64,000 nucleotides of DNA from Escherichia phage AV118, in the sequence record OR352948.1; one strand, given 5' to 3'. The stretch's first letter is position 1. Each line of letters starts with the position of its first letter. Under the pieces are notes generated by a model, which was not told where the DNA came from, searched no databases, and was given only the letters and a program-made list of their open reading frames with translations. A program made the position numbers and the translations under genes. Of this stretch, positions 34,370 to 57,938 are shown one piece after another.

Positions 34370-34672
34370 TTAGATAGATGTAGGCTCTAATTTTATTTTC
34401 ATGAACTCGGCAAATTGTCTGGCAGTTTTTATGCCTTGTTCATGACATTCAAATGCATCATCACAGGGACTATTTTTGTAATGCTTTGCCATATACTTAT
34501 AGAATTTTTCAGAATTCTCGACATTTTGAATTTCAAACAAAGTATATACGTTTTTAATCCCTGATTCCATAAAGTTATCAAAATATGGGTCGATATATGC
34601 AGTACCAACGATAGGAGTTGTTGCTGCAAAAAACCCCAGCATCGCCATGACAGCTATCGCTCTTAAGGCCAT
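34370..34672 (-). CDS. rI: lysis-inhibition regulator RI-like periplasmic protein
   Basis: 100 aa; N-terminal signal/anchor MALRAIAVMAMLGFFAA; position next to tk as T4 rI. Confidence 0.6.
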   Translation of the reverse strand: MALRAIAVMAMLGFFAATTPIVGTAYIDPYFDNFMESGIKNVYTLFEIQNVENSEKFYKYMAKHYKNSPCDDAFECHEQGIKTARQFAEFMKIKLEPTSI

Positions 34673-34924: not shown

Positions 34925-35506
34925 TTATAACAACCCTGTCAAATCGTTCCAATGCTTCCGGCATAATGACACATATCTATCGGTATCACCAATTTCAATT
35001 TGACTGCCATCTGTAATTGGAAGTCCGTCTTCCGTGACTCTAGCTACCATTGTGGCCTTTTTACCACAATGACAAACACCTTTAAGTTCAACAAGTTTAT
35101 CGGCAATAGCCATTAATGCTTGAGAACCTTCAAATAGATTACCTTTAAAATCTGTTCGTAGTCCATATGCCATTACCGGCACATTGTACACGTCAACAAT
35201 ACGACTAAGTTGATACACCTTTTCAGTAGTTAAGAACTGAGCTTCGTCAACAAATACACAATGAATATCCTTTTGTGCTGCAGCCCATTTATAAAATTCA
35301 AAGATATCCATGTCTTTTGTAATTATATTGGCATCCTGACGAATACCAATACGAGAGACTATTTCACCTTTTGAATCACGAGTATCAATAGCCGGTTTAA
35401 GAACTAATACACCCATGCCACGTTCTTTATAGTTATGTGCGGCAGTAAGTAATGAAGCAGACTTACCAGCGTTCATAGCGGCATAGGTAAAAATTAAACT
35501 AGCCAT
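34925..35506 (-). CDS. tk: thymidine kinase
   Basis: 193 aa; P-loop NAGKSASL, Zn-binding CHCGKKA...C motifs. Confidence 0.95.
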   Translation of the reverse strand: MASLIFTYAAMNAGKSASLLTAAHNYKERGMGVLVLKPAIDTRDSKGEIVSRIGIRQDANIITKDMDIFEFYKWAAAQKDIHCVFVDEAQFLTTEKVYQLSRIVDVYNVPVMAYGLRTDFKGNLFEGSQALMAIADKLVELKGVCHCGKKATMVARVTEDGLPITDGSQIEIGDTDRYVSLCRKHWNDLTGLL

Positions 35507-35515
35507 AAGAGTCCC

Positions 35516-35698
35516 TTATAGTGAATTCACGTAGTCAATGAGTTCTTGTTCTTTCCTGTCAAATGATTCCAACAATGCTTGATATTCTTCGTCCGTCAAA
35601 GGAGCATATTCATCATACGCATTGGTGGCTGCTTGCTCATCCAATAGGTCATGGATAAGTTCAAACAGTTTAGTTTTCTCTTCTTTAGTCAATTTCAT
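35516..35698 (-). CDS. hypothetical acidic protein
   Basis: 60-aa ORF. Confidence 0.45.
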   Translation of the reverse strand: MKLTKEEKTKLFELIHDLLDEQAATNAYDEYAPLTDEEYQALLESFDRKEQELIDYVNSL

Positions 35699-35922
35699 TT
35701 AGGTTCACCTTCTTTAACGAAATCTGGGTAAGGGTAAAATCCTGAGTAAAACCCTTCACCTTTATGATTGCTACAACCTTTGTTCGAACAGTAACACCAA
35801 TAATCAAAATCACAAGCCATTTCGTCATTGCATAAAGCAAAAACTACAGGCCATTCGCATTTTTCGCATTTAGCACCTGTAAGAATTTTTGTTTGACTCA
35901 TAGCCATGTCACCTTTAAGCAA
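35695..35922 (-). CDS. Cys-rich small protein (putative Zn-binding)
   Basis: 75 aa with about 10 Cys (CEKCEW, CYCSNKGC). Confidence 0.5.
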   Translation of the reverse strand: MLKGDMAMSQTKILTGAKCEKCEWPVVFALCNDEMACDFDYWCYCSNKGCSNHKGEGFYSGFYPYPDFVKEGEPK

Positions 35923-36125
35923 TATTCTTCTACATGTTGTTTACGGCCTTTCTTATCAATAAAGGTATATTCAACGAATGTTCCGATGTAGTCTTTATCT
36001 ACATCATGTGGACTATTAATTGGACATTTAGTACGACAAATGCGTTCCCATTGACGAATAATTACTGCCTTATTCTTTGGATCATATGGATGTGGATAAT
36101 GTATATTCATAATAACGGTTCCCAA
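35898..36125 (-). CDS. hypothetical protein
   Basis: 75-aa ORF. Confidence 0.45.
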   Translation of the reverse strand: MGTVIMNIHYPHPYDPKNKAVIIRQWERICRTKCPINSPHDVDKDYIGTFVEYTFIDKKGRKQHVEEYCLKVTWL

Positions 36126-36604
36126 TCAACAATCACAATTTCTAGTTTAGTGGAATACGTATCTAAAATCTCTTCGATGACATCCCAGTTTCCACCACCA
36201 ATACCTGCACCAATTCTTGGCATATAAATTACAGGCTTTGTTATCTTATTCTTTCCGAATTCATTTAATTCTATTATACAATTCATTAAAGCAGAGTACT
36301 CAAAATTAGGTCCCGGCTCAAACTGTGTATAAAGATTAAAGCAATAAGCTTTATGGGTCTTAAAATATTTTTCATAAACCGAATAAGTCCCGAGTTTAGA
36401 CTTGTCTCCGAATTCGGTTTGAAGTTTATCGGCTTCTAAAATTTTTGGATAAGCCTTTGCTAATTGGCCTGCTACACCGGCGCCCATTGTATGAAAACAA
36501 TTACACCCATGAGCAATATTATTACCTTTAGAAAACAGGGCGACAATATCGCCCTTGATATAGTTTTTAATCACTTGCTGCAAGTCCTCTATTATAAGAG
36601 TCAA
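36107..36604 (-). CDS. macro-domain protein (ADP-ribose binding/processing)
   Basis: 165 aa; GDIVAL...HGCNCFHTMGAGVAGQLA and YMPRIGAGIGGG motifs typical of macro domains. Confidence 0.6.
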   Translation of the reverse strand: MTLIIEDLQQVIKNYIKGDIVALFSKGNNIAHGCNCFHTMGAGVAGQLAKAYPKILEADKLQTEFGDKSKLGTYSVYEKYFKTHKAYCFNLYTQFEPGPNFEYSALMNCIIELNEFGKNKITKPVIYMPRIGAGIGGGNWDVIEEILDTYSTKLEIVIVDWEPLL

Positions 36605-36914
36605 CTAGACGGTCCACCATAGAATTGCATGCTGCCTTATCTTTAGGTTCCGCCACCGAGCATTCTAATATTTGCCATTTTTTATAGTATCTTTTAATTA
36701 AGGTAGACGCCTTGAACCTACTAGACGCCCCATCTTTTTCTCCGTCTTTATACGCGTATAACAATTTTTGTGAAAAATCTACTTTACACTCTTGACTTTT
36801 ACCACAATAATCAGACGCCGTTCTGTTTGTATACTCCGTTACATCAGTATATGTAGTATTAGCAAGAGCGTTAAATGAAACCAAGCTAACTATTAAAGCC
36901 AACATTTTGGTCAT
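36567..36914 (-). CDS. secreted/periplasmic protein with signal peptide
   Basis: 115 aa; N-terminal MTKMLALIVSLVSFNALA signal-like segment, 4 Cys. Confidence 0.5.
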   Translation of the reverse strand: MTKMLALIVSLVSFNALANTTYTDVTEYTNRTASDYCGKSQECKVDFSQKLLYAYKDGEKDGASSRFKASTLIKRYYKKWQILECSVAEPKDKAACNSMVDRLVDSYNRGLAASD

Positions 36915-37453
36915 TCTTTTATTTCCAGTAGTTTATTTGATTTAAGGTAATTAGCCTTTTCTAGGACTTCAGAAGCATATTTACTTCCAGCACTTGTCTT
37001 CCATCCTGCATTATATGAGGATATAGCTTTTCTTATATCCCCATTATGTATATTTAACCAATAAGAAAATTCGATATAAGCCCATCTGGCTGAATTAGAC
37101 CGCTTAGATAGCATTTTCTTAATTTGGGCATCAGACATATTATAACCAAGCTGGTTAATTCTTGCCCTCATTGTTGGTAGATAATTTTGGAACATTCCAT
37201 ACGCATGGTGACCTTTCTTATCTTTAAGATTAATACCGGCAGATGATTCCTGCCATAGTATTGCGGCCATTATGTATCCAAGTCCTTTCTTATGCATATT
37301 TTCATGCGTTTTAAATTTTCCGTCCTTAGAAAACTGTTCCCCAAACTGATAAGCATAATTCAAGTTATCGAGTTGGACATTACTAAAAGTATGCTCGGAG
37401 CTATGTGCTGATAACGAAAGAGCAAATAGACCAGCGAGTAGTGCTTTTCTCAT
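36911..37453 (-). CDS. secreted lytic transglycosylase (SLT domain)
   Basis: 180 aa; signal peptide MRKALLAGLFALSLSAHS; catalytic-region motif AAILWQESSAG...YGMFQ. Confidence 0.7.
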   Translation of the reverse strand: MRKALLAGLFALSLSAHSSEHTFSNVQLDNLNYAYQFGEQFSKDGKFKTHENMHKKGLGYIMAAILWQESSAGINLKDKKGHHAYGMFQNYLPTMRARINQLGYNMSDAQIKKMLSKRSNSARWAYIEFSYWLNIHNGDIRKAISSYNAGWKTSAGSKYASEVLEKANYLKSNKLLEIKE

Positions 37454-37461
37454 GTTTACCT

Positions 37462-37920
37462 CTAGATTTTAATCACTGCTTTAGAAGCTTTTCCTGGTAG
37501 TCGTTTACTGTTAATAATAGCCATTCTACATTGAAGAGTCTTCATTTTGAATGCCGGATTTTCGCGACAAACTGTAAGTCCTAACCAAAGATTTCCGTCA
37601 GTTATTTCTAAACGGCCTGGGCGATATTCGACACCTTCGACAAAATCTTCATCAACATCCGGACGTGCCGGCATTGATAAAAATTCTGCAACTTCTTTAA
37701 CGTGATTTTTTACTTTATGAAATAATTCAAAAACGTAATTCTCATCTATTTCTCTCTGGATGGCACGATCTAAGAGATGTTGAGAATACTTGATATGAAA
37801 GCCTGGTAGTCCAAGAGACTTTGCAGCATCTTTTATACCGGCATTTATTTTGCGGAACTCCGTTTCAAAGATTCGACGGAGTTTATTACGGCGGATAAAA
37901 ACATCCGAATTGATAGTCAT
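37462..37920 (-). CDS. regB: endoribonuclease RegB
   Basis: 152 aa; sequence/size as T4 RegB, position relative to tk and e. Confidence 0.75.
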   Translation of the reverse strand: MTINSDVFIRRNKLRRIFETEFRKINAGIKDAAKSLGLPGFHIKYSQHLLDRAIQREIDENYVFELFHKVKNHVKEVAEFLSMPARPDVDEDFVEGVEYRPGRLEITDGNLWLGLTVCRENPAFKMKTLQCRMAIINSKRLPGKASKAVIKI

Positions 37921-37948
37921 TTTGATTTCTCCTCTAGTTGACAGGTCT

Positions 37949-37977
37949 ATAGTAACACAACTAGAGGAGAAGTAAAC
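37949..37977 (-). promoter_or_regulatory. T4-early-type promoter GTTTAC-N17-TACTAT
   Basis: Palindromic promoter-family element. Confidence 0.5.
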
Positions 37978-37981
37978 TACT

Positions 37982-38197
37982 TTATTGATAAAATGGAGTT
38001 AAAGCCCAGGATTCTTTAGATACTATATTGGCGAAATGCCTCATCTCTTCGATTTGGCGACGACGCTGGTCAGCATAGTCTTCTTCGCCTTCTTCCTTAC
38101 AGTCTTCAAGGTCTTCTTCAAGATACTTTAAGTATTCACTACAAATTTTGTTGACCTTTTCTTGGAAGTCCAATAACCCAGTAATAGTAGAAGCCAT
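37982..38197 (-). CDS. hypothetical protein
   Basis: 71-aa ORF. Confidence 0.45.
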   Translation of the reverse strand: MASTITGLLDFQEKVNKICSEYLKYLEEDLEDCKEEGEEDYADQRRRQIEEMRHFANIVSKESWALTPFYQ

Positions 38198-38463
38198 TAG
38201 TATTTTTCCTCAGGTCGAAATACCGCACGACATGCCCACATACTGGCTTCTTTTAGATGTTGCTTAGCGTACTTAAGAGCCTGCACTGCATCCATATCTT
38301 CTTTGGTTTGTTGCTCTGTTTCATTTTCTTTCAAGATATATGCTTCTTCAATCAGAGCATCAAACAACAATCCAAGACGGACTTCAGCATCTTTAATAGC
38401 GTTCACTTTACCAATTTTATCATCGGTATGCGGCTTGTAACCTTTAATATCTTCAATCGACAT
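38197..38463 (-). CDS. hypothetical protein
   Basis: 88 aa from ATG 38463 (MSIEDIKG...), SD GAGGAAA; ORF-track extension overlaps upstream gene. Confidence 0.45.
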   Translation of the reverse strand: MSIEDIKGYKPHTDDKIGKVNAIKDAEVRLGLLFDALIEEAYILKENETEQQTKEDMDAVQALKYAKQHLKEASMWACRAVFRPEEKY

Positions 38464-38677
38464 AAGGAATTTCCTCATCTGTGGCAAGGTCATATTCGAC
38501 CAATTGGATAGGCTCATTAATACCATATCCACGTACAGTGATATCAGTTGTCGGATAGTTTCCAGTAATATCACCCGTTCTAAATGCTTCAATGAATGAT
38601 TGCTCGCCTGAGCAACTAAACCAGGCGGCAAAACATTTTAAAACATCTTCAGACCCTTCTATAATCAATTTAGCCAT
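38453..38677 (-). CDS. hypothetical protein
   Basis: 74-aa ORF. Confidence 0.45.
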   Translation of the reverse strand: MAKLIIEGSEDVLKCFAAWFSCSGEQSFIEAFRTGDITGNYPTTDITVRGYGINEPIQLVEYDLATDEEIPYVD

Positions 38678-39039
38678 TATAGACTCTCAGTAAAGGTACG
38701 AGCGATAACGTCGCGTTGCTGTTCCGGAGTCAGAGAGTTAAAGCGAACTGCATATCCGGATACACGGATGGTCAGCTGCGGATATTTTTCTGGATGCTTA
38801 ACTGCATCTTCCAAAGTTTCACGACGCAGAACGTTAACGTTCAGATGTTGACCACCTTCAATTTTAACTTTAGGTTGATGTTCAATTTCAATTTCACGGG
38901 CATTCAAACCGTAGAAAATTTCCGGGTCTACAATAGCGTCTTCTTTAAAAGTCTTAGAGACAATAATCCGGGCTTGAGTACCGTCTTCAAAATAAATAGT
39001 GCCTTTATGTGCACCTTCAAGAATTTGATATGCTTTCAT
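38677..39039 (-). CDS. hypothetical protein
   Basis: 120-aa ORF. Confidence 0.5.
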
Positions 39040-39045
39040 ATAACC

Positions 39046-39354
39046 TCAGTTAGAAAATAAATTTATCCAAGTTTTTTCTTTAATCAAAAATGGGTCGGAA
39101 TTAAACGCCATTAAACTTTGAGTGATTAATCCCTTAAATGGCCCATCAATAAATTCCATTTTGAAATGCGGAATACTAGTCATCAACCGTGCATTAGGAG
39201 CAGTACAAAGAACCTGCTGCCCTGCGAACGGTCCTTTAGTCAAACGGTATCGTTTAGGTTTAAAATGGTAAATCTCGTAATTTTCTACAAGAGCCATTTT
39301 ATTGCATACTGGGCTGTTATAACAATATTCAAAAACTTCAATAGTGGTCATCAT
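39046..39354 (-). CDS. hypothetical protein
   Basis: 102-aa ORF. Confidence 0.5.
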   Translation of the reverse strand: MMTTIEVFEYCYNSPVCNKMALVENYEIYHFKPKRYRLTKGPFAGQQVLCTAPNARLMTSIPHFKMEFIDGPFKGLITQSLMAFNSDPFLIKEKTWINLFSN

Positions 39355-39890
39355 TGCATTCCAATCACAAAAAATTGAGGACGAGCATTACCGCCGATGC
39401 AATATTTGCTTTTGCAACAGTGTTGGACTGTTTTAATATGTACATTGTAAATCTTATCCATATCAGGAGCTTTAATAGGCTCGTCAATTATGTACAGAAT
39501 ACGAGAAAGCGTTAATCCACGGAATTTAGAACCTTCATTGCCAATAAAACTACGAACAGAATCAGTAAATAAACGGAATCGAATATCGTCGCTAGAATAA
39601 CGAGAAAATTCTTTTTTAATGTTGCCGGCAGAAATTTTAGCATAAGCTGAAGTATTAGAAAGAACAATAACTGTTCCACCATCATACAGCCAATTAACAG
39701 CAAAATTAGTTACTGCGGTCGATTTACCTGATTGTCTGCCGCCGTCTAAACGAAGTGTACAGTACTGCTTGAGTACGTCTTCAAATGGTGGGACATAACC
39801 GTTCTTACAAATTTCTTCTACTCTAGCATCAGAATGGTGTGTAAAAGCATTCATCAGGGATAGATAAGGACCAGTTAAAAATGTTCTCAT
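39351..39890 (-). CDS. P-loop NTPase-like protein
   Basis: 179 aa; Walker A GGRQSGKST. Confidence 0.55.
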   Translation of the reverse strand: MRTFLTGPYLSLMNAFTHHSDARVEEICKNGYVPPFEDVLKQYCTLRLDGGRQSGKSTAVTNFAVNWLYDGGTVIVLSNTSAYAKISAGNIKKEFSRYSSDDIRFRLFTDSVRSFIGNEGSKFRGLTLSRILYIIDEPIKAPDMDKIYNVHIKTVQHCCKSKYCIGGNARPQFFVIGMQ

Positions 39891-39972
39891 TTAGTTTCTC
39901 TTTTAGGTTGGGCCATTCCGTGGCGCATGAATTGTCCATTTCTGTATTTACCCCTCCAAGTAATTATGAATA

Positions 39973-40001
39973 TACTATCACAATTCTAGGAGAAAGTAAA
40001 C
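39973..40001 (-). promoter_or_regulatory. T4-early-type promoter (GTTTAC + TAnnnT)
   Basis: Promoter-family element upstream of internal-protein gene. Confidence 0.4.
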
Positions 40002-40003
40002 TG

Positions 40004-40306
40004 TTATTTACCTTTAATTACTTTAGCTGCTTCGATAGCCGCTTGCTGAAGGTCATCCATAGACATACCAAATTTAGAAGCAAAGTTATCAATTTTCTTT
40101 TCGACAGCATTCAAAGGCTTGGCCTGTTTACCTTCATTAGCGCCAGGAAGAGCGAGAATACGCTCTTTGTCAATATAAAGGCTTACAAGTTTCTTACGGT
40201 CTTTATCGGACAAATCATGAAATGAATGGGCCTTTTTATTTATAGCGGCTTCTAATTTACCTGCACTCACTCGCGCTTCAGTAATAAATTCTTGATATGT
40301 TTTCAT
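40004..40306 (-). CDS. capsid internal protein with capsid-targeting sequence (IPII/IPIII-like)
   Basis: 100 aa; N-terminal CTS MKTYQEFITEA. Confidence 0.8.
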   Translation of the reverse strand: MKTYQEFITEARVSAGKLEAAINKKAHSFHDLSDKDRKKLVSLYIDKERILALPGANEGKQAKPLNAVEKKIDNFASKFGMSMDDLQQAAIEAAKVIKGK

Positions 40307-41108: not shown

Positions 41109-41390
41109 CTATTTTTCTGAAGCGCCTGAAATATATTTTTCAAGACGTTGTTTCATTAGCGAGCCGTTCTTAGCGATTTCTTCCGGTTTATCGCACATAC
41201 GTAACAAGGCTTCAAGCTTAGCGATATCGCTGGTACGTTCAAATTTGCGAGTATCTATCTTACTAGCAAGTTCAGAAATACGTGCTAATAGACTTTCAGC
41301 TTCAACCAAAGCTGCACCTAGCTTAGTTGCAAATGTGTCAGTAGCTTCATTAAGAATAGATTCTGATAAAAATTCATTGTATGTTTTCAT
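41109..41390 (-). CDS. capsid internal protein with capsid-targeting sequence
   Basis: 93 aa from ATG 41390; N-terminal [14 protein letters not shown]. Confidence 0.7.
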
Positions 41391-41875
41391 ATATACGCTT
41401 TCCAAGTTCCTGTTTTAAATGTTGAGATTACGCGTTTCGCGCGATTAGGTGTCTGACGATACCATTTAGATTGGGCTAGATTTACTGCCGCTTCGTCCCA
41501 ACGTTTCTGTTGAAGCATACGAAGAGAATTAGTAAAACCGGCGACGCCTGCTACACCCATTTGGAAGACCATATTGACCAATGCACATCGACGAACCGCA
41601 TCTAAAGAATCATATACCGGTTTAAGTTTAGCATTACCCAAGATTCCGCGAACGGCTTTATCAACGTCTTCATTAAATAGCTTTTCAGCCTCATCGAGGG
41701 TAATTGTACCGTTGCATTTACGTCCGATCATTCTGTCAAGTTCAGCTTTAGCTACGGCTAAAGACGGGTTCTTTGTTACTAAATGGCCTATGCCAATCGT
41801 CCAAAAGCCTTCAGTGTCTTTGTATAAAGTTAGTCTAAGACCTTCGTCATTACGAAGCATTTCAAATATATTCAT
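41387..41875 (-). CDS. e: endolysin (T4 lysozyme)
   Basis: 162 aa from ATG 41875 (MNIFEMLR...); catalytic E11/D20 region [14 protein letters not shown]; matches T4 e. Confidence 0.95.
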
Positions 41876-41877
41876 AA

Positions 41878-41907
41878 TACCTCCCACGTTTATAGGAGGT
41901 ATTTATT
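41878..41907 (-). promoter_or_regulatory. hairpin sequestering the endolysin SD, with late-promoter-like AATAAATA at its 5' side
   Basis: TACCTCC-loop-GGGAGGTA inverted repeat; SD GGAGG in 3' arm 5 nt before ATG. Confidence 0.5.
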
Positions 41908-55629: not shown

Positions 55630-56205
55630 TTGTTATTTACATTCTTCGACCCAATAGGATATAGTGCTAAAACAGTTAATAAGAATGCACCTACTATTCC
55701 TATGACAGACATATTTCGTAACTATAAAGAGTACTTTAAGCGTGTGGCTGCCAATTATAGATTACGTTCTTATTACATTAAAGGCTCTCCACGTCCTGAA
55801 GAACTAGCGAATATCATTTATGGCAACCCGCAATTATACTGGGTTCTTTTGATGTGCAACGATAACTACGACCCGTATTATGGTTGGATTACATCTCAGG
55901 AAGCAGCGTATCAAGCTTCTATTCAGAAATATGCTAATGCTGGTGGAGACCAAATTCTTTACCATATTAATGAGAACCGTGAGAAATTTTACAATTTAGT
56001 TTCATATCCTGATGAGCCTTTAGTGTGGTACGATAAAGGTGATGAAGCTCGTAAGTATCCGCAATATAAAGGACCTTTAGCTGCAGTAGATACTTATGAA
56101 GCGGCAGTATTAGATAATGAAAAACTTCGTAAAATAAAAATTGTTGCAAAAGAAGATATAAACTCGTTTATCACAGATTTGATTCGTGAGATGGAGATTG
56201 CATAA
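55630..56205 (+). CDS. 53: baseplate wedge protein
   Basis: 191-aa ORF; apparent TTG start with SD AAGGAG 7 nt upstream; precedes gp5. Confidence 0.85.
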   Translation: MLFTFFDPIGYSAKTVNKNAPTIPMTDIFRNYKEYFKRVAANYRLRSYYIKGSPRPEELANIIYGNPQLYWVLLMCNDNYDPYYGWITSQEAAYQASIQKYANAGGDQILYHINENREKFYNLVSYPDEPLVWYDKGDEARKYPQYKGPLAAVDTYEAAVLDNEKLRKIKIVAKEDINSFITDLIREMEIA

Positions 56206-57938
56206 TGGAAATGATTAGCAGTAGCCTTAATTGGTTCGTGGGTGTTGTCGAGGACAGAATGGACCCATTAAAACAAGGGCGAGTTCGAGTTCGAGTCGTT
56301 GGTCTTCATCCGGCACAGAGAGCACAAGGTGATGTACAAGGTATTCCTACAGAAAAACTTCCATGGATGACTGTTATTCAACCTATTACGTCTGCATCAA
56401 TGTCAGGTATTGGTGGTTCTGTTACAGGTCCTGTTGAAGGAACTCGAGTATATGGTCATTTCTTAGACAAATGGAAAACAAACGGGATTGTACTTGGTAC
56501 GTATGGCGGAATTGTACGTGAAAAGCCTAATAAACTTGAAGGTTTTTCAGACCCGACAGGCCAGTATCCGCGACGTTTAGGTAATGATACGAACGTATTA
56601 AACCAAGGTGGTGAAGCTGGTTATTATTCGAACTCTAACGTAATTCAAGATAACAACTTGGATTATGGTATAAACCCAGACGATACAGATTTAGCAAATA
56701 TTCCAGAAGATGATGACCCTAATTTTACAATAACAGAAATGTTACGTCGTGACGAAGGTCTTCGTGATAAAGTGTATTGGGACCATCTCGGATATCCTAC
56801 CGTAGGTATTGGTCACCTTATCGTAATGGAAAAGACCCGAGATATGTCTCGAATTAATAAATTGTTATCTGATCAAGTAGGGCGTGAAGTAACAGGAAAT
56901 CCCGGAACTATTACATTAGAAGAAGCAACAGCGTTATTTGAGAAAGACCTTGCTAAGATGCAGAAAGACATTCGTTCTAATTCTAAAGTAGGTCCTGTTT
57001 ATGCTAAAATGAACAGGTCTCGTCAAATGGCATTAGAAAACATGTGCTTCCAAATGGGTGTTGGTGGTGTAGCAAAATTCAATACTATGCTTAAAGCAAT
57101 GGCCACAGGCGATTGGAAAACTGCATACAAATCTGGACGCGATTCATTATGGTTCCAACAGACTAAAGGACGCGCTTCACGTGTAACAACAATTATTTTA
57201 ACCGGTAATATGGAATCATACGGTGTTCCTGTTAAAACACCGCCTTCACCAGGAGTTGGTGCCGATTTAGTTACTAGAAATACCGATCCAGAAGACCCGG
57301 CCGGTCCTCCTGTTCCATTAGATTCACGTATCCTTTTTAAAGAACCAGAATCAAGTTATCGTGGTGAGTATCCATACGTTCATGCTATGGAAACAGAAAG
57401 TGGTCATATCCAAGAATTTGACGATACTCCAGGTAATGAACGTTATCGCTTAGTTCATCCAACAGGGTCATATGAGGAAGTTTCTCCGTCTGGGCGTCGT
57501 ACTCGTAAAACTGTAGAAGACCTTTTTGACATCACTAATGGTGATGGGAACTTCTTGATTTCTGGCGATAAGCTTGTTAACGTTGGTGCTAATGAAATAT
57601 ATTATAACATGGCAGACCGCCTCCATCAAATAGACGGCAATGACACAATCTTTATTCGTGGTAACCAATCTAAAACTGTTGAAGGCGATGGAACTCTTTA
57701 CGTTAAGGGTAATATCAAAATAGTTGTTGACGGAAATGCAGATATTCTTGTTAAAGGTGATGCTAAAACTCAGGTCGAAGGGAATCATGATTACACCGTC
57801 AACGGAAACGTTAAATGGACTGTTAATGGTAATGTTGATATGACTGTTGCCGGGGATTGGGCAGAAACAATGTCTACAATGAGCTCAGTAGCTTCAGGAC
57901 AATACACTGTTGACGGATCTCGTATTGATATTGGGTAA
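56205..57938 (+). CDS. 5: baseplate hub + tail lysozyme (cell-puncturing device)
   Basis: 577 aa; central lysozyme domain EGLRDKVYWDHLGYPTVGIGH; C-terminal beta-helix VxGxxxxx repeats. Confidence 0.95.
   Translation: MEMISSSLNWFVGVVEDRMDPLKQGRVRVRVVGLHPAQRAQGDVQGIPTEKLPWMTVIQPITSASMSGIGGSVTGPVEGTRVYGHFLDKWKTNGIVLGTYGGIVREKPNKLEGFSDPTGQYPRRLGNDTNVLNQGGEAGYYSNSNVIQDNNLDYGINPDDTDLANIPEDDDPNFTITEMLRRDEGLRDKVYWDHLGYPTVGIGHLIVMEKTRDMSRINKLLSDQVGREVTGNPGTITLEEATALFEKDLAKMQKDIRSNSKVGPVYAKMNRSRQMALENMCFQMGVGGVAKFNTMLKAMATGDWKTAYKSGRDSLWFQQTKGRASRVTTIILTGNMESYGVPVKTPPSPGVGADLVTRNTDPEDPAGPPVPLDSRILFKEPESSYRGEYPYVHAMETESGHIQEFDDTPGNERYRLVHPTGSYEEVSPSGRRTRKTVEDLFDITNGDGNFLISGDKLVNVGANEIYYNMADRLHQIDGNDTIFIRGNQSKTVEGDGTLYVKGNIKIVVDGNADILVKGDAKTQVEGNHDYTVNGNVKWTVNGNVDMTVAGDWAETMSTMSSVASGQYTVDGSRIDIG

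Follow-up and report, generated by a model that had tools for sequence, protein, structure and literature searches.

Why would a phage that possesses gp5 and endolysin e export a third predicted muralytic enzyme early in infection? This question was raised by two neighboring genes of Escherichia phage AV118 (OR352948.1), of which we analyzed a stretch of 64,000 nucleotides, here called the window. A first-pass annotation made from the sequence alone had described the genes as encoding a secreted lytic transglycosylase and a co-secreted small protein. The pair is ordinary and annotated already. Both genes are named in T4 (vs.1 and vs), a marginal match of T4 vs.1 to SLT has been in print since 2006 (PMC1524935), and Vs.1 is a predicted enzyme. 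The first-pass annotation missed the T4 names and the printed similarity, and also the label of the small ORF, 'valyl-tRNA synthetase modifier', which is decades old and is carried by more than a thousand phage records. In the searchable literature we found no reported activity or phenotype for vs.1, and no enzymatic, localization or interaction data for Vs.1 or Vs. Functional work on vs.1 and mentions of a Vs signal peptide were not found in that literature beyond PMC1524935, PMC4177764, PMC8076793, PMC9697503 and the HIDEN-SEQ preprint.

Identity and arrangement of the gene pair

The window derives from an RB69-like T4 relative of the genus Mosigvirus and is 99.9% identical in DNA to Mosigvirus AV115. 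Both reported ORFs were recovered on the minus strand, one encoding a 180-aa precursor (36911..37453) and the other a 115-aa precursor (36567..36914). These are orthologs of T4 vs.1 (phrog_600, E=4.6e-67) and T4 vs (phrog_1256, E=3.3e-35; the Pfam entry given for Vs in the protein database is PF26829). AV118 Vs.1 is ~83% identical to the T4-type ortholog (P0002) and AV118 Vs is 66% identical to T4-type Vs (P0124), and the gene order, tk ... tk.4-vs-vs.1-regB, is that of T4. The stop codon of vs.1 and the start codon of vs overlap in an ATGA (36911..36914, minus strand), which suggests translational coupling. In relatives, the two genes overlapped or were a few bases apart in 56 of 70 loci. The enzyme gene had also been described as independent of endolysin e and the gp5 lysozyme, and this was borne out: the window has a GH24 gene of its own for each, e lying within 41387..41902 on the minus strand and gp5 within 56190..57938 on the plus strand. 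No paralog of Vs.1 was found within these 64 kb.

Predicted fold and active site of Vs.1

The AlphaFold2 model of Vs.1 (pLDDT 91.7) confidently predicted an all-helical, lysozyme-like fold of the GH23/SLT type. When this model was compared with the PDB using Foldseek, 30 of the 31 best matches were lysozyme-fold muramidases, transglycosylases or chitinases, and ranks 1-23 were GH23-type without exception; TM scores were ~0.5 and probabilities reached 1.00, with weak E-values (best 8.8e-3). Top matches included a Ralstonia GH23 chitinase, MltD, Slt70, P. aeruginosa Slt, phi6 P5 and T7 gp16. Similarity at the sequence level was marginal. The match to Pfam SLT (PF01464) was below threshold (18.3 bits against a gathering cutoff of 21.3, E=0.0017), and a precomputed PF01464 match was present in some homologs, placing the family at the edge of this model. 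Direct sequence search of the PDB with Vs.1 gave no match, and the best matches of a Vs.1 profile were g-type lysozymes at a marginal E of about 0.3, an alignment that served only to set the register of motifs.

Three candidate catalytic-site motifs were recognized. The 'Q-E-S' region of the first-pass annotation corresponds to WQE69SS, in which Glu69 (codon 37247..37249, minus strand) is the predicted catalytic general acid. This residue was invariant in 42 homologs and aligned with the catalytic-Glu region SRESRAG of a goose-type lysozyme. G-L-M-Q and A-Y-N-x-G are the established motifs of family-1 lytic transglycosylases. The former resembles G86-M-F-Q89 of Vs.1 (motif II; 37187..37198, minus strand), and the latter corresponds to Y147-N-A-G150 (motif III; 37004..37015, minus strand), which aligned with ISAYNAG of a g-type lysozyme. 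Residues G86, Q89, N90, Y147, N148 and G150 were invariant together with E69 in the 42-sequence alignment. The persistence of all three motifs across deep divergence speaks for an active enzyme. Between E69 and Q89 the 42 homologs share no further invariant acidic residue, and the sole other invariant carboxylate, E128, lies ~60 residues downstream. This is no more than suggestive of a non-hydrolytic chemistry.

Predicted export of Vs.1 and Vs

Both proteins begin with a predicted Sec-type signal peptide. In Vs.1 this comprises aa 1-18, MRKALLAGLFALSLSAHS (37400..37453, minus strand), with an n-region containing R/K, a 12-residue h-region and the cleavage motif A-H-S, after which signal peptidase I is predicted to cut and leave a mature protein that starts with SEHTF. 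In Vs it comprises aa 1-18, MTKMLALIVSLVSFNALA (36861..36914, minus strand), with a predicted cut after A-L-A and a mature start at NTTY. The mature proteins would be about 162 aa (18.7 kDa, pI 9.6) and about 97 aa (11.0 kDa), respectively. Of the 184 ATG-initiated ORFs in the window with 50 aa or more, just 7 passed a crude signal-peptide filter, so that a chance neighboring pair of positives is unlikely. The n/h/c architecture was kept in nearly all of ~120 Vs.1 homologs and a signal peptide was present in all full-length members among 57 unique Vs homologs, in both cases with diverging residues. We infer that Vs.1 and Vs are exported and cleaved. The earlier description of the 180-aa product as a stand-alone SLT/GH23-type protein with an export signal thus gained support in silico from the AlphaFold2 model, the Foldseek matches and the motifs, and the description of its 115-aa follower as likewise bearing an export signal gained support from the A-L-A motif and homolog conservation.

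In the CC31/Karamvirus clade, a canonical lipoprotein lipobox, L-S-G-C, replaces the Sec-type leader of Vs. A lipoprotein form of Vs would be tethered to a membrane and face the periplasm, a position that is difficult to square with action in the cytoplasm. A leaderless cytoplasmic isoform was considered and ruled out, as the AV118 and T4 Vs translations hold no internal Met from which it could start. A weaker but consistent point is that His-tagged full-length T4 Vs was insoluble in the E. coli cytoplasm (PMC8076793).

Predicted structure of Vs

The AlphaFold2 model of Vs (pLDDT 84.8) contains four helices, at residues 15-37, 41-64, 69-85 and 90-114. Structure comparison found no fold relative and no similarity to the known lysozyme or transglycosylase inhibitor folds of Spackle, Ivy, MliC/PliC and PliG, and sequence search of the PDB returned only a chance antibody match. 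Four conserved cysteines, C37, C43, C85 and C96 (spanning 36627..36806, minus strand), are located at the turns between helices 1 and 2 and between helices 3 and 4. In close homologs they were invariant, and in a wider alignment each was either invariant or conserved to 90% or more; nearly all full-length members of the 57 unique homologs possess a mature part with all four. Their spacing varies, with CX5C or CX10C in the first pair and CX8C or CX10C in the second. This variability favors two loop-closing disulfides, which we predict for Vs, and a Zn(Cys)4 site was therefore not the preferred interpretation.

Transcription and timing

An early-promoter-like site, GTTTAC and TACTAT separated by 17 nt, is present upstream of regB (37949..37977, minus strand), and is likely to be the start of a regB-vs.1-vs transcript. 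Generic scanning for sigma-70 promoters gave no signal beyond chance. The late promoter TATAAATA was not found between 34929 and 40244 on the minus strand, which carries vs.1 and vs. In T4, where expression timing has been measured, vs.1 and vs belong to the early-RNA/middle-protein class, and mass spectrometry detected the products of both genes (PMC9697503 supplement). This class assignment indicates that the pair is not a late lysis system and, together with an early transcription unit that has no late promoter, makes a role in end-stage lysis unlikely.

The first-pass annotation had also offered lysis from without, superinfection control or envelope remodelling as possible functions. Lysis from without in T4 is caused by virion-borne gp5, and nothing that we saw marks Vs.1 as a virion protein; this function is therefore unlikely and was rejected. 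Vs.1 could conceivably serve in superinfection control or envelope remodelling.

Linkage and distribution across phages

Few non-structural accessory genes of T4-like phages are conserved as widely as vs.1, which also occurs in Ackermannviridae and FelixO1-like phages; together these account for 2058 phage records. A word-indexed protein search recovered just 8 clusters and 7 representatives of Vs, as if the family were tiny, but profile searches of loci placed Vs beside vs.1 in most T4-like lineages. The two genes shared a locus in 64 of 70 cases and were directly adjacent in 56, compared with 49 of 70 in which regB adjoins vs.1 and 28 of 70 in which tk.4 adjoins Vs. In all 23 of 23 Vs loci, vs.1 was immediately upstream. 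The pair persists in Acinetobacter phages that have neither regB nor tk.4 nearby, and in 26 of the 70 loci the gene after vs encodes a further, third secreted protein, phrog_4957.

Mirror-tree analysis gave no sign that Vs.1 and Vs co-evolve more than their shared phylogeny would predict (r=0.69 for Vs.1-Vs and 0.85 for Vs.1-regB; partial r for Vs.1-Vs 0.24). Charge complementarity between Vs.1 and Vs was inconsistent across pairs, with the pI of Vs ranging from 4.4 to 9.0. The adjacency of the two genes could be inherited synteny alone.

A proposed joint role and its alternatives

We slightly favor a model in which vs.1 and vs form a conserved, early-expressed pair with envelope products, Vs acting with or on a Vs.1 transglycosylase that uses Glu69. 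This model extends from what was observed here (gene identity, fold, conservation of motifs, signal peptides and cysteines, and gene linkage) and from the T4 timing to export, cleavage, enzymatic activity, Vs-Vs.1 contact and biological purpose. The Vs.1 precursor would pass through the Sec pathway and be cut by signal peptidase I to give a basic, soluble periplasmic enzyme of ~18.7 kDa with a GH23 (SLT) lysozyme-like fold. With Glu69 as single general acid, the enzyme would break peptidoglycan at the MurNAc-GlcNAc bond, most likely by a non-hydrolytic route that leaves 1,6-anhydroMurNAc ends. Stop-start coupling would yield Vs from the vs.1 mRNA, and Vs too would be exported, as a four-helix protein of ~11 kDa stapled by two disulfides. 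In the envelope it would act with or on Vs.1, most plausibly to restrain or direct its activity. In the pre-replicative and middle period, the two proteins would together reshape the sacculus at local sites without lysing the cell, and lysis would be left to holin t and endolysin e.

What Vs itself does is where this model meets its principal competitor. Under the existing annotation, Vs is the tau factor, binds cytoplasmic valyl-tRNA synthetase (ValRS) and alters its stability; Vs.1 would be unrelated and the adjacency merely inherited. We consider this account rather unlikely, and with it the corollary that export makes no use, or only inefficient use, of the hydrophobic Vs N-terminus. It is the annotation of the T4 reference record and of many other phage records. 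The selection of vs mutants made use of valS(ts) hosts, and the size of tau, about 10 kDa, is near the 11.0 kDa predicted for mature Vs. The lack of a mirror-tree signal also agrees with it. As relayed in PMC8076793, the sole experimentally based role of T4 Vs is binding to host ValRS, from the Marchin/Neidhardt work, and the biochemistry cited there is that of Muller and Marchin 1975 and 1977. A T4 vs knockout had a defect specific to minimal medium (bioRxiv 10.1101/2025.11.20.689424), M9, in which aminoacylation and the stringent response matter, and a translation-related role fits this phenotype equally well. However, a tau factor is hard to square with a Sec-type leader in all full-length homologs and four cysteines in nearly all of them, with a clade that exchanged the leader for a lipobox, and with a Vs that holds no internal start for a leaderless form. 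Vs is also linked more tightly to an exported enzyme, often with a third exported protein, than to its other neighbors. Furthermore, the searchable literature gave no account of how the 115-aa ORF came to be equated with the genetic vs locus. We tentatively propose instead that Vs is primarily an exported, disulfide-bonded envelope protein that works with Vs.1, perhaps as regulator or inhibitor, and that the ValRS link is secondary, arises in vitro after lysis or reflects a mis-assigned locus. With similar reserve, we suggest that Vs is lipid-anchored in some phages and that T4-like phages conserve these two or three genes as a periplasmic module.

Two further alternatives concern Vs.1. It may be a pre-positioned secretory auxiliary lysin, comparable to the signal-peptide or SAR endolysins of other phages, that is exported early, remains inactive (possibly held so by Vs or the energized membrane) and is set free to assist wall degradation once the holin fires. 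A predicted muralytic fold joined to an export signal would suit this function, as would a neighborhood that includes lysis-timing genes: rI is ~2 kb from the pair here and in T4, in Acinetobacter phages it follows vs at a distance of 0.7-1 kb, and the pair adjoins rIIA/rIIB in a FelixO1-like phage. Against this, the genes are expressed early or middle and not late; T4 e mutants do not lyse, and so Vs.1 cannot replace endolysin e; and no lysis phenotype is described for T4 vs.1 or vs in those searchable papers that name them. We therefore regard an auxiliary lysin as improbable. It is also quite improbable that Vs.1 is a weak or inert peptidoglycan binder that has kept the fold, or a true lysozyme, that is, a hydrolase and not a transglycosylase. 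GH23 includes the goose-type lysozymes, which gave the best sequence-profile matches in the PDB, and sequence alone cannot reveal chemistry. However, inertness is at odds with the invariance of the three catalytic-site motifs, and a hydrolase of the g-type would be expected to have a second, water-activating invariant carboxylate in the E69-Q89 interval, whereas the only candidate is the distant E128.

The envelope model for the pair has a consequence for annotation. Its leader, four cysteines, lipobox variant and strict linkage to vs.1 mark Vs, by prediction, as exported family-wide, and these features contradict the compartment implied by its textbook function on ValRS. If this conflict were resolved, an annotation of long standing would be corrected or Vs would emerge as an unusual protein of two compartments; the resolution would also give context to the minimal-medium phenotype newly described for T4 vs.

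Comparison with known systems

The closest counterparts are the T4 genes. T4 vs.1 (UniProt P13311, Y06E_BPT4; phrog_600) has the same length, signal peptide, motifs and position between regB and vs, and no substantive difference from AV118 vs.1. T4 vs (UniProt P13310; phrog_1256/PF26829) likewise shares length, position, leader and four cysteines; its annotated function is to bind an enzyme of the cytoplasm, with which the family-wide export features disagree.

The helical, lysozyme-like fold predicted for Vs.1, its E-S motif with one presumed catalytic Glu, and its GLMQ-like and AYNxG motifs are also those of the cellular family-1 enzymes E. coli Slt70, P. aeruginosa Slt and MltD. In contrast to these, Vs.1 is a minimal single domain with no doughnut, LysM or lipid anchor, is phage-encoded and early-expressed, and has only marginal sequence similarity to them. 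The stand-alone SLT enzymes VirB1, P19, IpgF/IagB and EtgA, small Sec-exported 'specialised' transglycosylases that belong to secretion systems or plasmids, are about 160-200 aa in length with a cleavable signal peptide, and are thought to open local gaps in the sacculus without lysing the cell. Their likeness to Vs.1 is one of general description. They serve the assembly of known trans-envelope machines, whereas we know of no machine of that kind in early T4 infection. The N-terminal domain of T7 gp16 and phi6 P5, both among the Foldseek matches, have the same fold as Vs.1; they are virion components or lysis enzymes, whereas Vs.1 is non-structural, predicted to be secreted, and early. For Vs, the concept that we propose is that of T4 Spackle (gp61.3) acting on the gp5 lysozyme, and of the bacterial inhibitors Ivy, MliC/PliC and PliG, in which a small periplasmic, disulfide-containing protein controls a muralytic enzyme.

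Identity and organization of the two ORFs

The first-pass annotation had correctly described two ORFs and their sequence features, which we confirmed on the minus strand, but had recognised neither gene as T4 vs.1 or vs. Sequence comparison identified the pair as established, named genes of T4. The 180-aa ORF (36911..37453, minus strand) matches phrog_600 (E=4.6e-67) and shows ~83% identity to T4-type Vs.1, while the 115-aa ORF (36567..36914, minus strand) matches phrog_1256 (E=3.3e-35) and shows 66% identity to T4-type Vs, orthologs of which are annotated 'valyl-tRNA synthetase modifier'. The order of tk, tk.1-tk.4, vs, vs.1 and regB is as in T4, and DNA identity over the vs.1-vs stretch is 99.9% to Escherichia phage AV115, a Mosigvirus and RB69-like T4 relative, identifying the two ORFs as the vs.1 and vs orthologs respectively. 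The vs.1 stop codon overlaps the vs start (ATGA). A GAGG ribosome-binding site 5' of vs.1 overlaps the regB stop codon, and that of vs is weak, which fits translational coupling to vs.1.

The end of vs is overlapped by 8 nt by the start of tk.4 (36107-36574, minus strand), whose product contains a macro domain (Pfam Macro, E=1.9e-6). In T4 the ortholog was named AdfM in a 2025 preprint, as an anti-DarT factor enabling the phage to overcome DarTG2 defence. The 5' end of tk.4 contains a terminator-like hairpin, AGGGCGAUAUUGUCGCCCU, with a U-run after it (36537-36555, minus strand), 12 nt past the vs stop. T4 and VR25 have the identical hairpin, and Klebsiella phage kv_tblp8 lacks it. It may serve as an attenuator at which the regB-vs.1-vs transcript ends, or may simply be a consequence of the coding of KGDIVAL.

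Linkage of vs.1 and vs in related phages

Of 70 vs.1 loci from IMG/VR, 64 had a same-strand Vs homolog downstream, in 56 cases directly adjacent to or overlapping vs.1; regB adjoined vs.1 in 49 of the 70 and tk.4 adjoined Vs in 28. In a separate set of 23 loci fetched with Vs, vs.1 was immediately upstream in every case. Acinetobacter phages retain vs.1-vs without regB and tk.4 nearby, and Slopekvirus/RB43-like phages retain Vs 0.4-1.2 kb downstream of vs.1. This distribution argues that vs.1 and vs are a conserved module.

Directly 3' of Vs, 26 of the 70 loci encode phrog_4957, a secreted protein of unknown function (~135 aa, about 130-148; for example L043:3866-4267, L065:3872-4291 and L086:3785-4210 in loci of relatives), which would make the envelope module a three-gene one in many T4-like phages. 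No phrog_4957 homolog was found in the window. Its signal peptide ends in A|W, and it has two conserved cysteines. Vs was not detectable in Aeromonas T4-like phages, which do carry vs.1. Those of the 44RR/25 type encode phrog_9490 (140-146 aa; L093:3856-4296 and L092:4375-4797) just upstream of tk.4, with a lipobox-like or SPase I leader, and this protein may stand in for Vs without being homologous to it.

Vs.1 is a predicted exported transglycosylase

The enzyme prediction for Vs.1 is an old one: marginal SLT similarity in T4 and five relatives was published in 2006 (PMC1524935). Here too, the Pfam SLT match fell below threshold (E=0.0017; 18.3 bits vs a cutoff of 21.3). An AlphaFold2 model built from a 42-sequence alignment (mean pLDDT 91.7) gave as best PDB matches a coherent GH23 set comprising Ralstonia GH23 chitinase, MltD, P. 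aeruginosa Slt, E. coli Slt70, phi6 P5 and the T7 gp16 core protein, with probability up to 1.00, TM ~0.5 and weak E-values (best 8.8e-3). All three family-1 lytic transglycosylase signature motifs were invariant in the alignment: E69 in WQESS, G86/Q89 in GMFQ, and Y147/N148/G150 in YNAG. A profile-to-PDB alignment matched E69 and YNAG in position to goose-type lysozyme's catalytic motifs. No second invariant carboxylate occurs between E69 and Q89 among the 42 homologs, the only other invariant acidic residue being E128, far downstream, a pattern more in keeping with transglycosylase than with hydrolase chemistry.

The N-terminus, MRKALLAGLFALSLSAHS|SE, reads as a textbook SPase I signal, with a predicted mature protein of 18.7 kDa and pI 9.6. 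This architecture is kept, with quite different residues, in nearly all of ~120 homologs from phages of Escherichia, Klebsiella, Serratia, Acinetobacter, Aeromonas and others; the few without it resemble truncated gene calls. The family is represented in 2058 phage records, among them Ackermannviridae and FelixO1-like phages. Vs.1 is best read as a GH23/SLT-fold protein with predicted enzymatic activity and a signal for export.

Expression timing and relation to lysis genes

No T4 late promoter (TATAAATA) was found on the minus strand from 34929 to 40244. Upstream of regB, within 37921-37977 (minus strand), is a site resembling an early-type promoter (GTTTAC, 17 nt, TACTAT), and in T4 vs.1 and vs belong to the early-RNA/middle-protein class, with both proteins detected by mass spectrometry (PMC9697503 supplement). 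Such timing places the pair outside the late lysis programme, and nothing indicated that it contributes to lysis from without or to end-stage lysis. As proposed, the sequence is best read as encoding an SLT-type enzyme and a small protein that are both exported and are independent of e and gp5. The window has separate GH24 genes for endolysin e (within 41387..41902, minus strand) and gp5 (within 56190..57938, plus strand), and no Vs.1 paralog.

The stretch containing the promoter-like site also holds an inverted repeat, CTCCTCTAGTTG / CAACTAGAGGAG, which can sequester the regB Shine-Dalgarno GGAG, RegB's own cleavage motif; in one related record this hairpin carries a terminator annotation. 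The vs.1 family recurs beside lysis-timing genes. The ortholog of rI, the lysis-inhibition antiholin (34370-34672, minus strand), lies ~2 kb from vs and, by a crude filter, is among the few other window ORFs whose N-terminus is of the export type. Acinetobacter phages carry vs.1-vs 0.7-1 kb upstream of rI, and in Salmonella phage SP116 (Felixounavirus; L008:1908-2456) a vs.1 homolog with a signal peptide directly follows rIIA-rIIB, without Vs.

Vs as a putative exported partner of Vs.1

A profile including divergent members found Vs in most T4-like lineages. Every full-length Vs among 57 unique homologs begins with a leader of the Sec type, and the mature part almost always contains exactly four cysteines. 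The AlphaFold2 model (pLDDT 84.8) has four helices (15-37, 41-64, 69-85 and 90-114), with the cysteines at the helix1-helix2 and helix3-helix4 turns. Spacing varies (CX5C or CX10C in the first pair, CX8C or CX10C in the second), as expected of loop-closing disulfides, which these cysteines would form. Vs therefore looks exported.

This conflicts with the textbook cytoplasmic role of Vs, under which synteny with vs.1 would be coincidental. As related in PMC8076793, citing Muller and Marchin, the only experimental role of T4 Vs is binding of ValRS, a cytoplasmic host enzyme; the same paper reports that His-tagged full-length T4 Vs is not soluble in the cytoplasm of E. coli. Enterobacter phage CC31 and its Karamvirus relatives (33 records with identity of 95% or more) have a leader, MKKLFVLLVVVALSG|C, that is a canonical lipoprotein lipobox, in a gene nonetheless annotated 'vs'. 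This variant would be anchored on the periplasmic side of the membrane, which is hard to square with a cytoplasmic site of action. Neither Vs here nor T4 Vs has an internal Met that would give a leaderless isoform. The tau factor, which we take to be ~10 kDa, would fit the cleaved product (predicted 11.0 kDa). We consider the cytoplasmic role, the main rival, rather unlikely.

Tests of a direct Vs-Vs.1 relationship were null. Their distance-matrix correlation (r=0.69; partial correlation 0.24) was no higher than that of Vs.1 and regB (0.85), and Vs evolves at ~2x the rate of Vs.1 (mean distance 0.57 vs 0.29). Vs.1 homologs are always strongly basic and Vs has a pI of 4.4 to 9.0, with no consistent charge pairing, and Vs showed no likeness to a known inhibitor. 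What points to a partnership is thus co-localisation, translational coupling and linkage. On balance we lean towards vs.1 and vs being an early-expressed envelope module, in which Vs.1 would act as a periplasmic lytic transglycosylase with Vs as its disulfide-stapled partner, the two locally remodelling the sacculus.

The family-wide features marking Vs as exported are the point of greatest interest, and are cheap to test. In T4, no gene was more depleted than vs in M9 minimal medium, on which a vs knockout also plaqued poorly (bioRxiv 10.1101/2025.11.20.689424); this phenotype fits either a role in translation or the stringent response, or lost restraint on a wall-cutting enzyme under slow wall synthesis.
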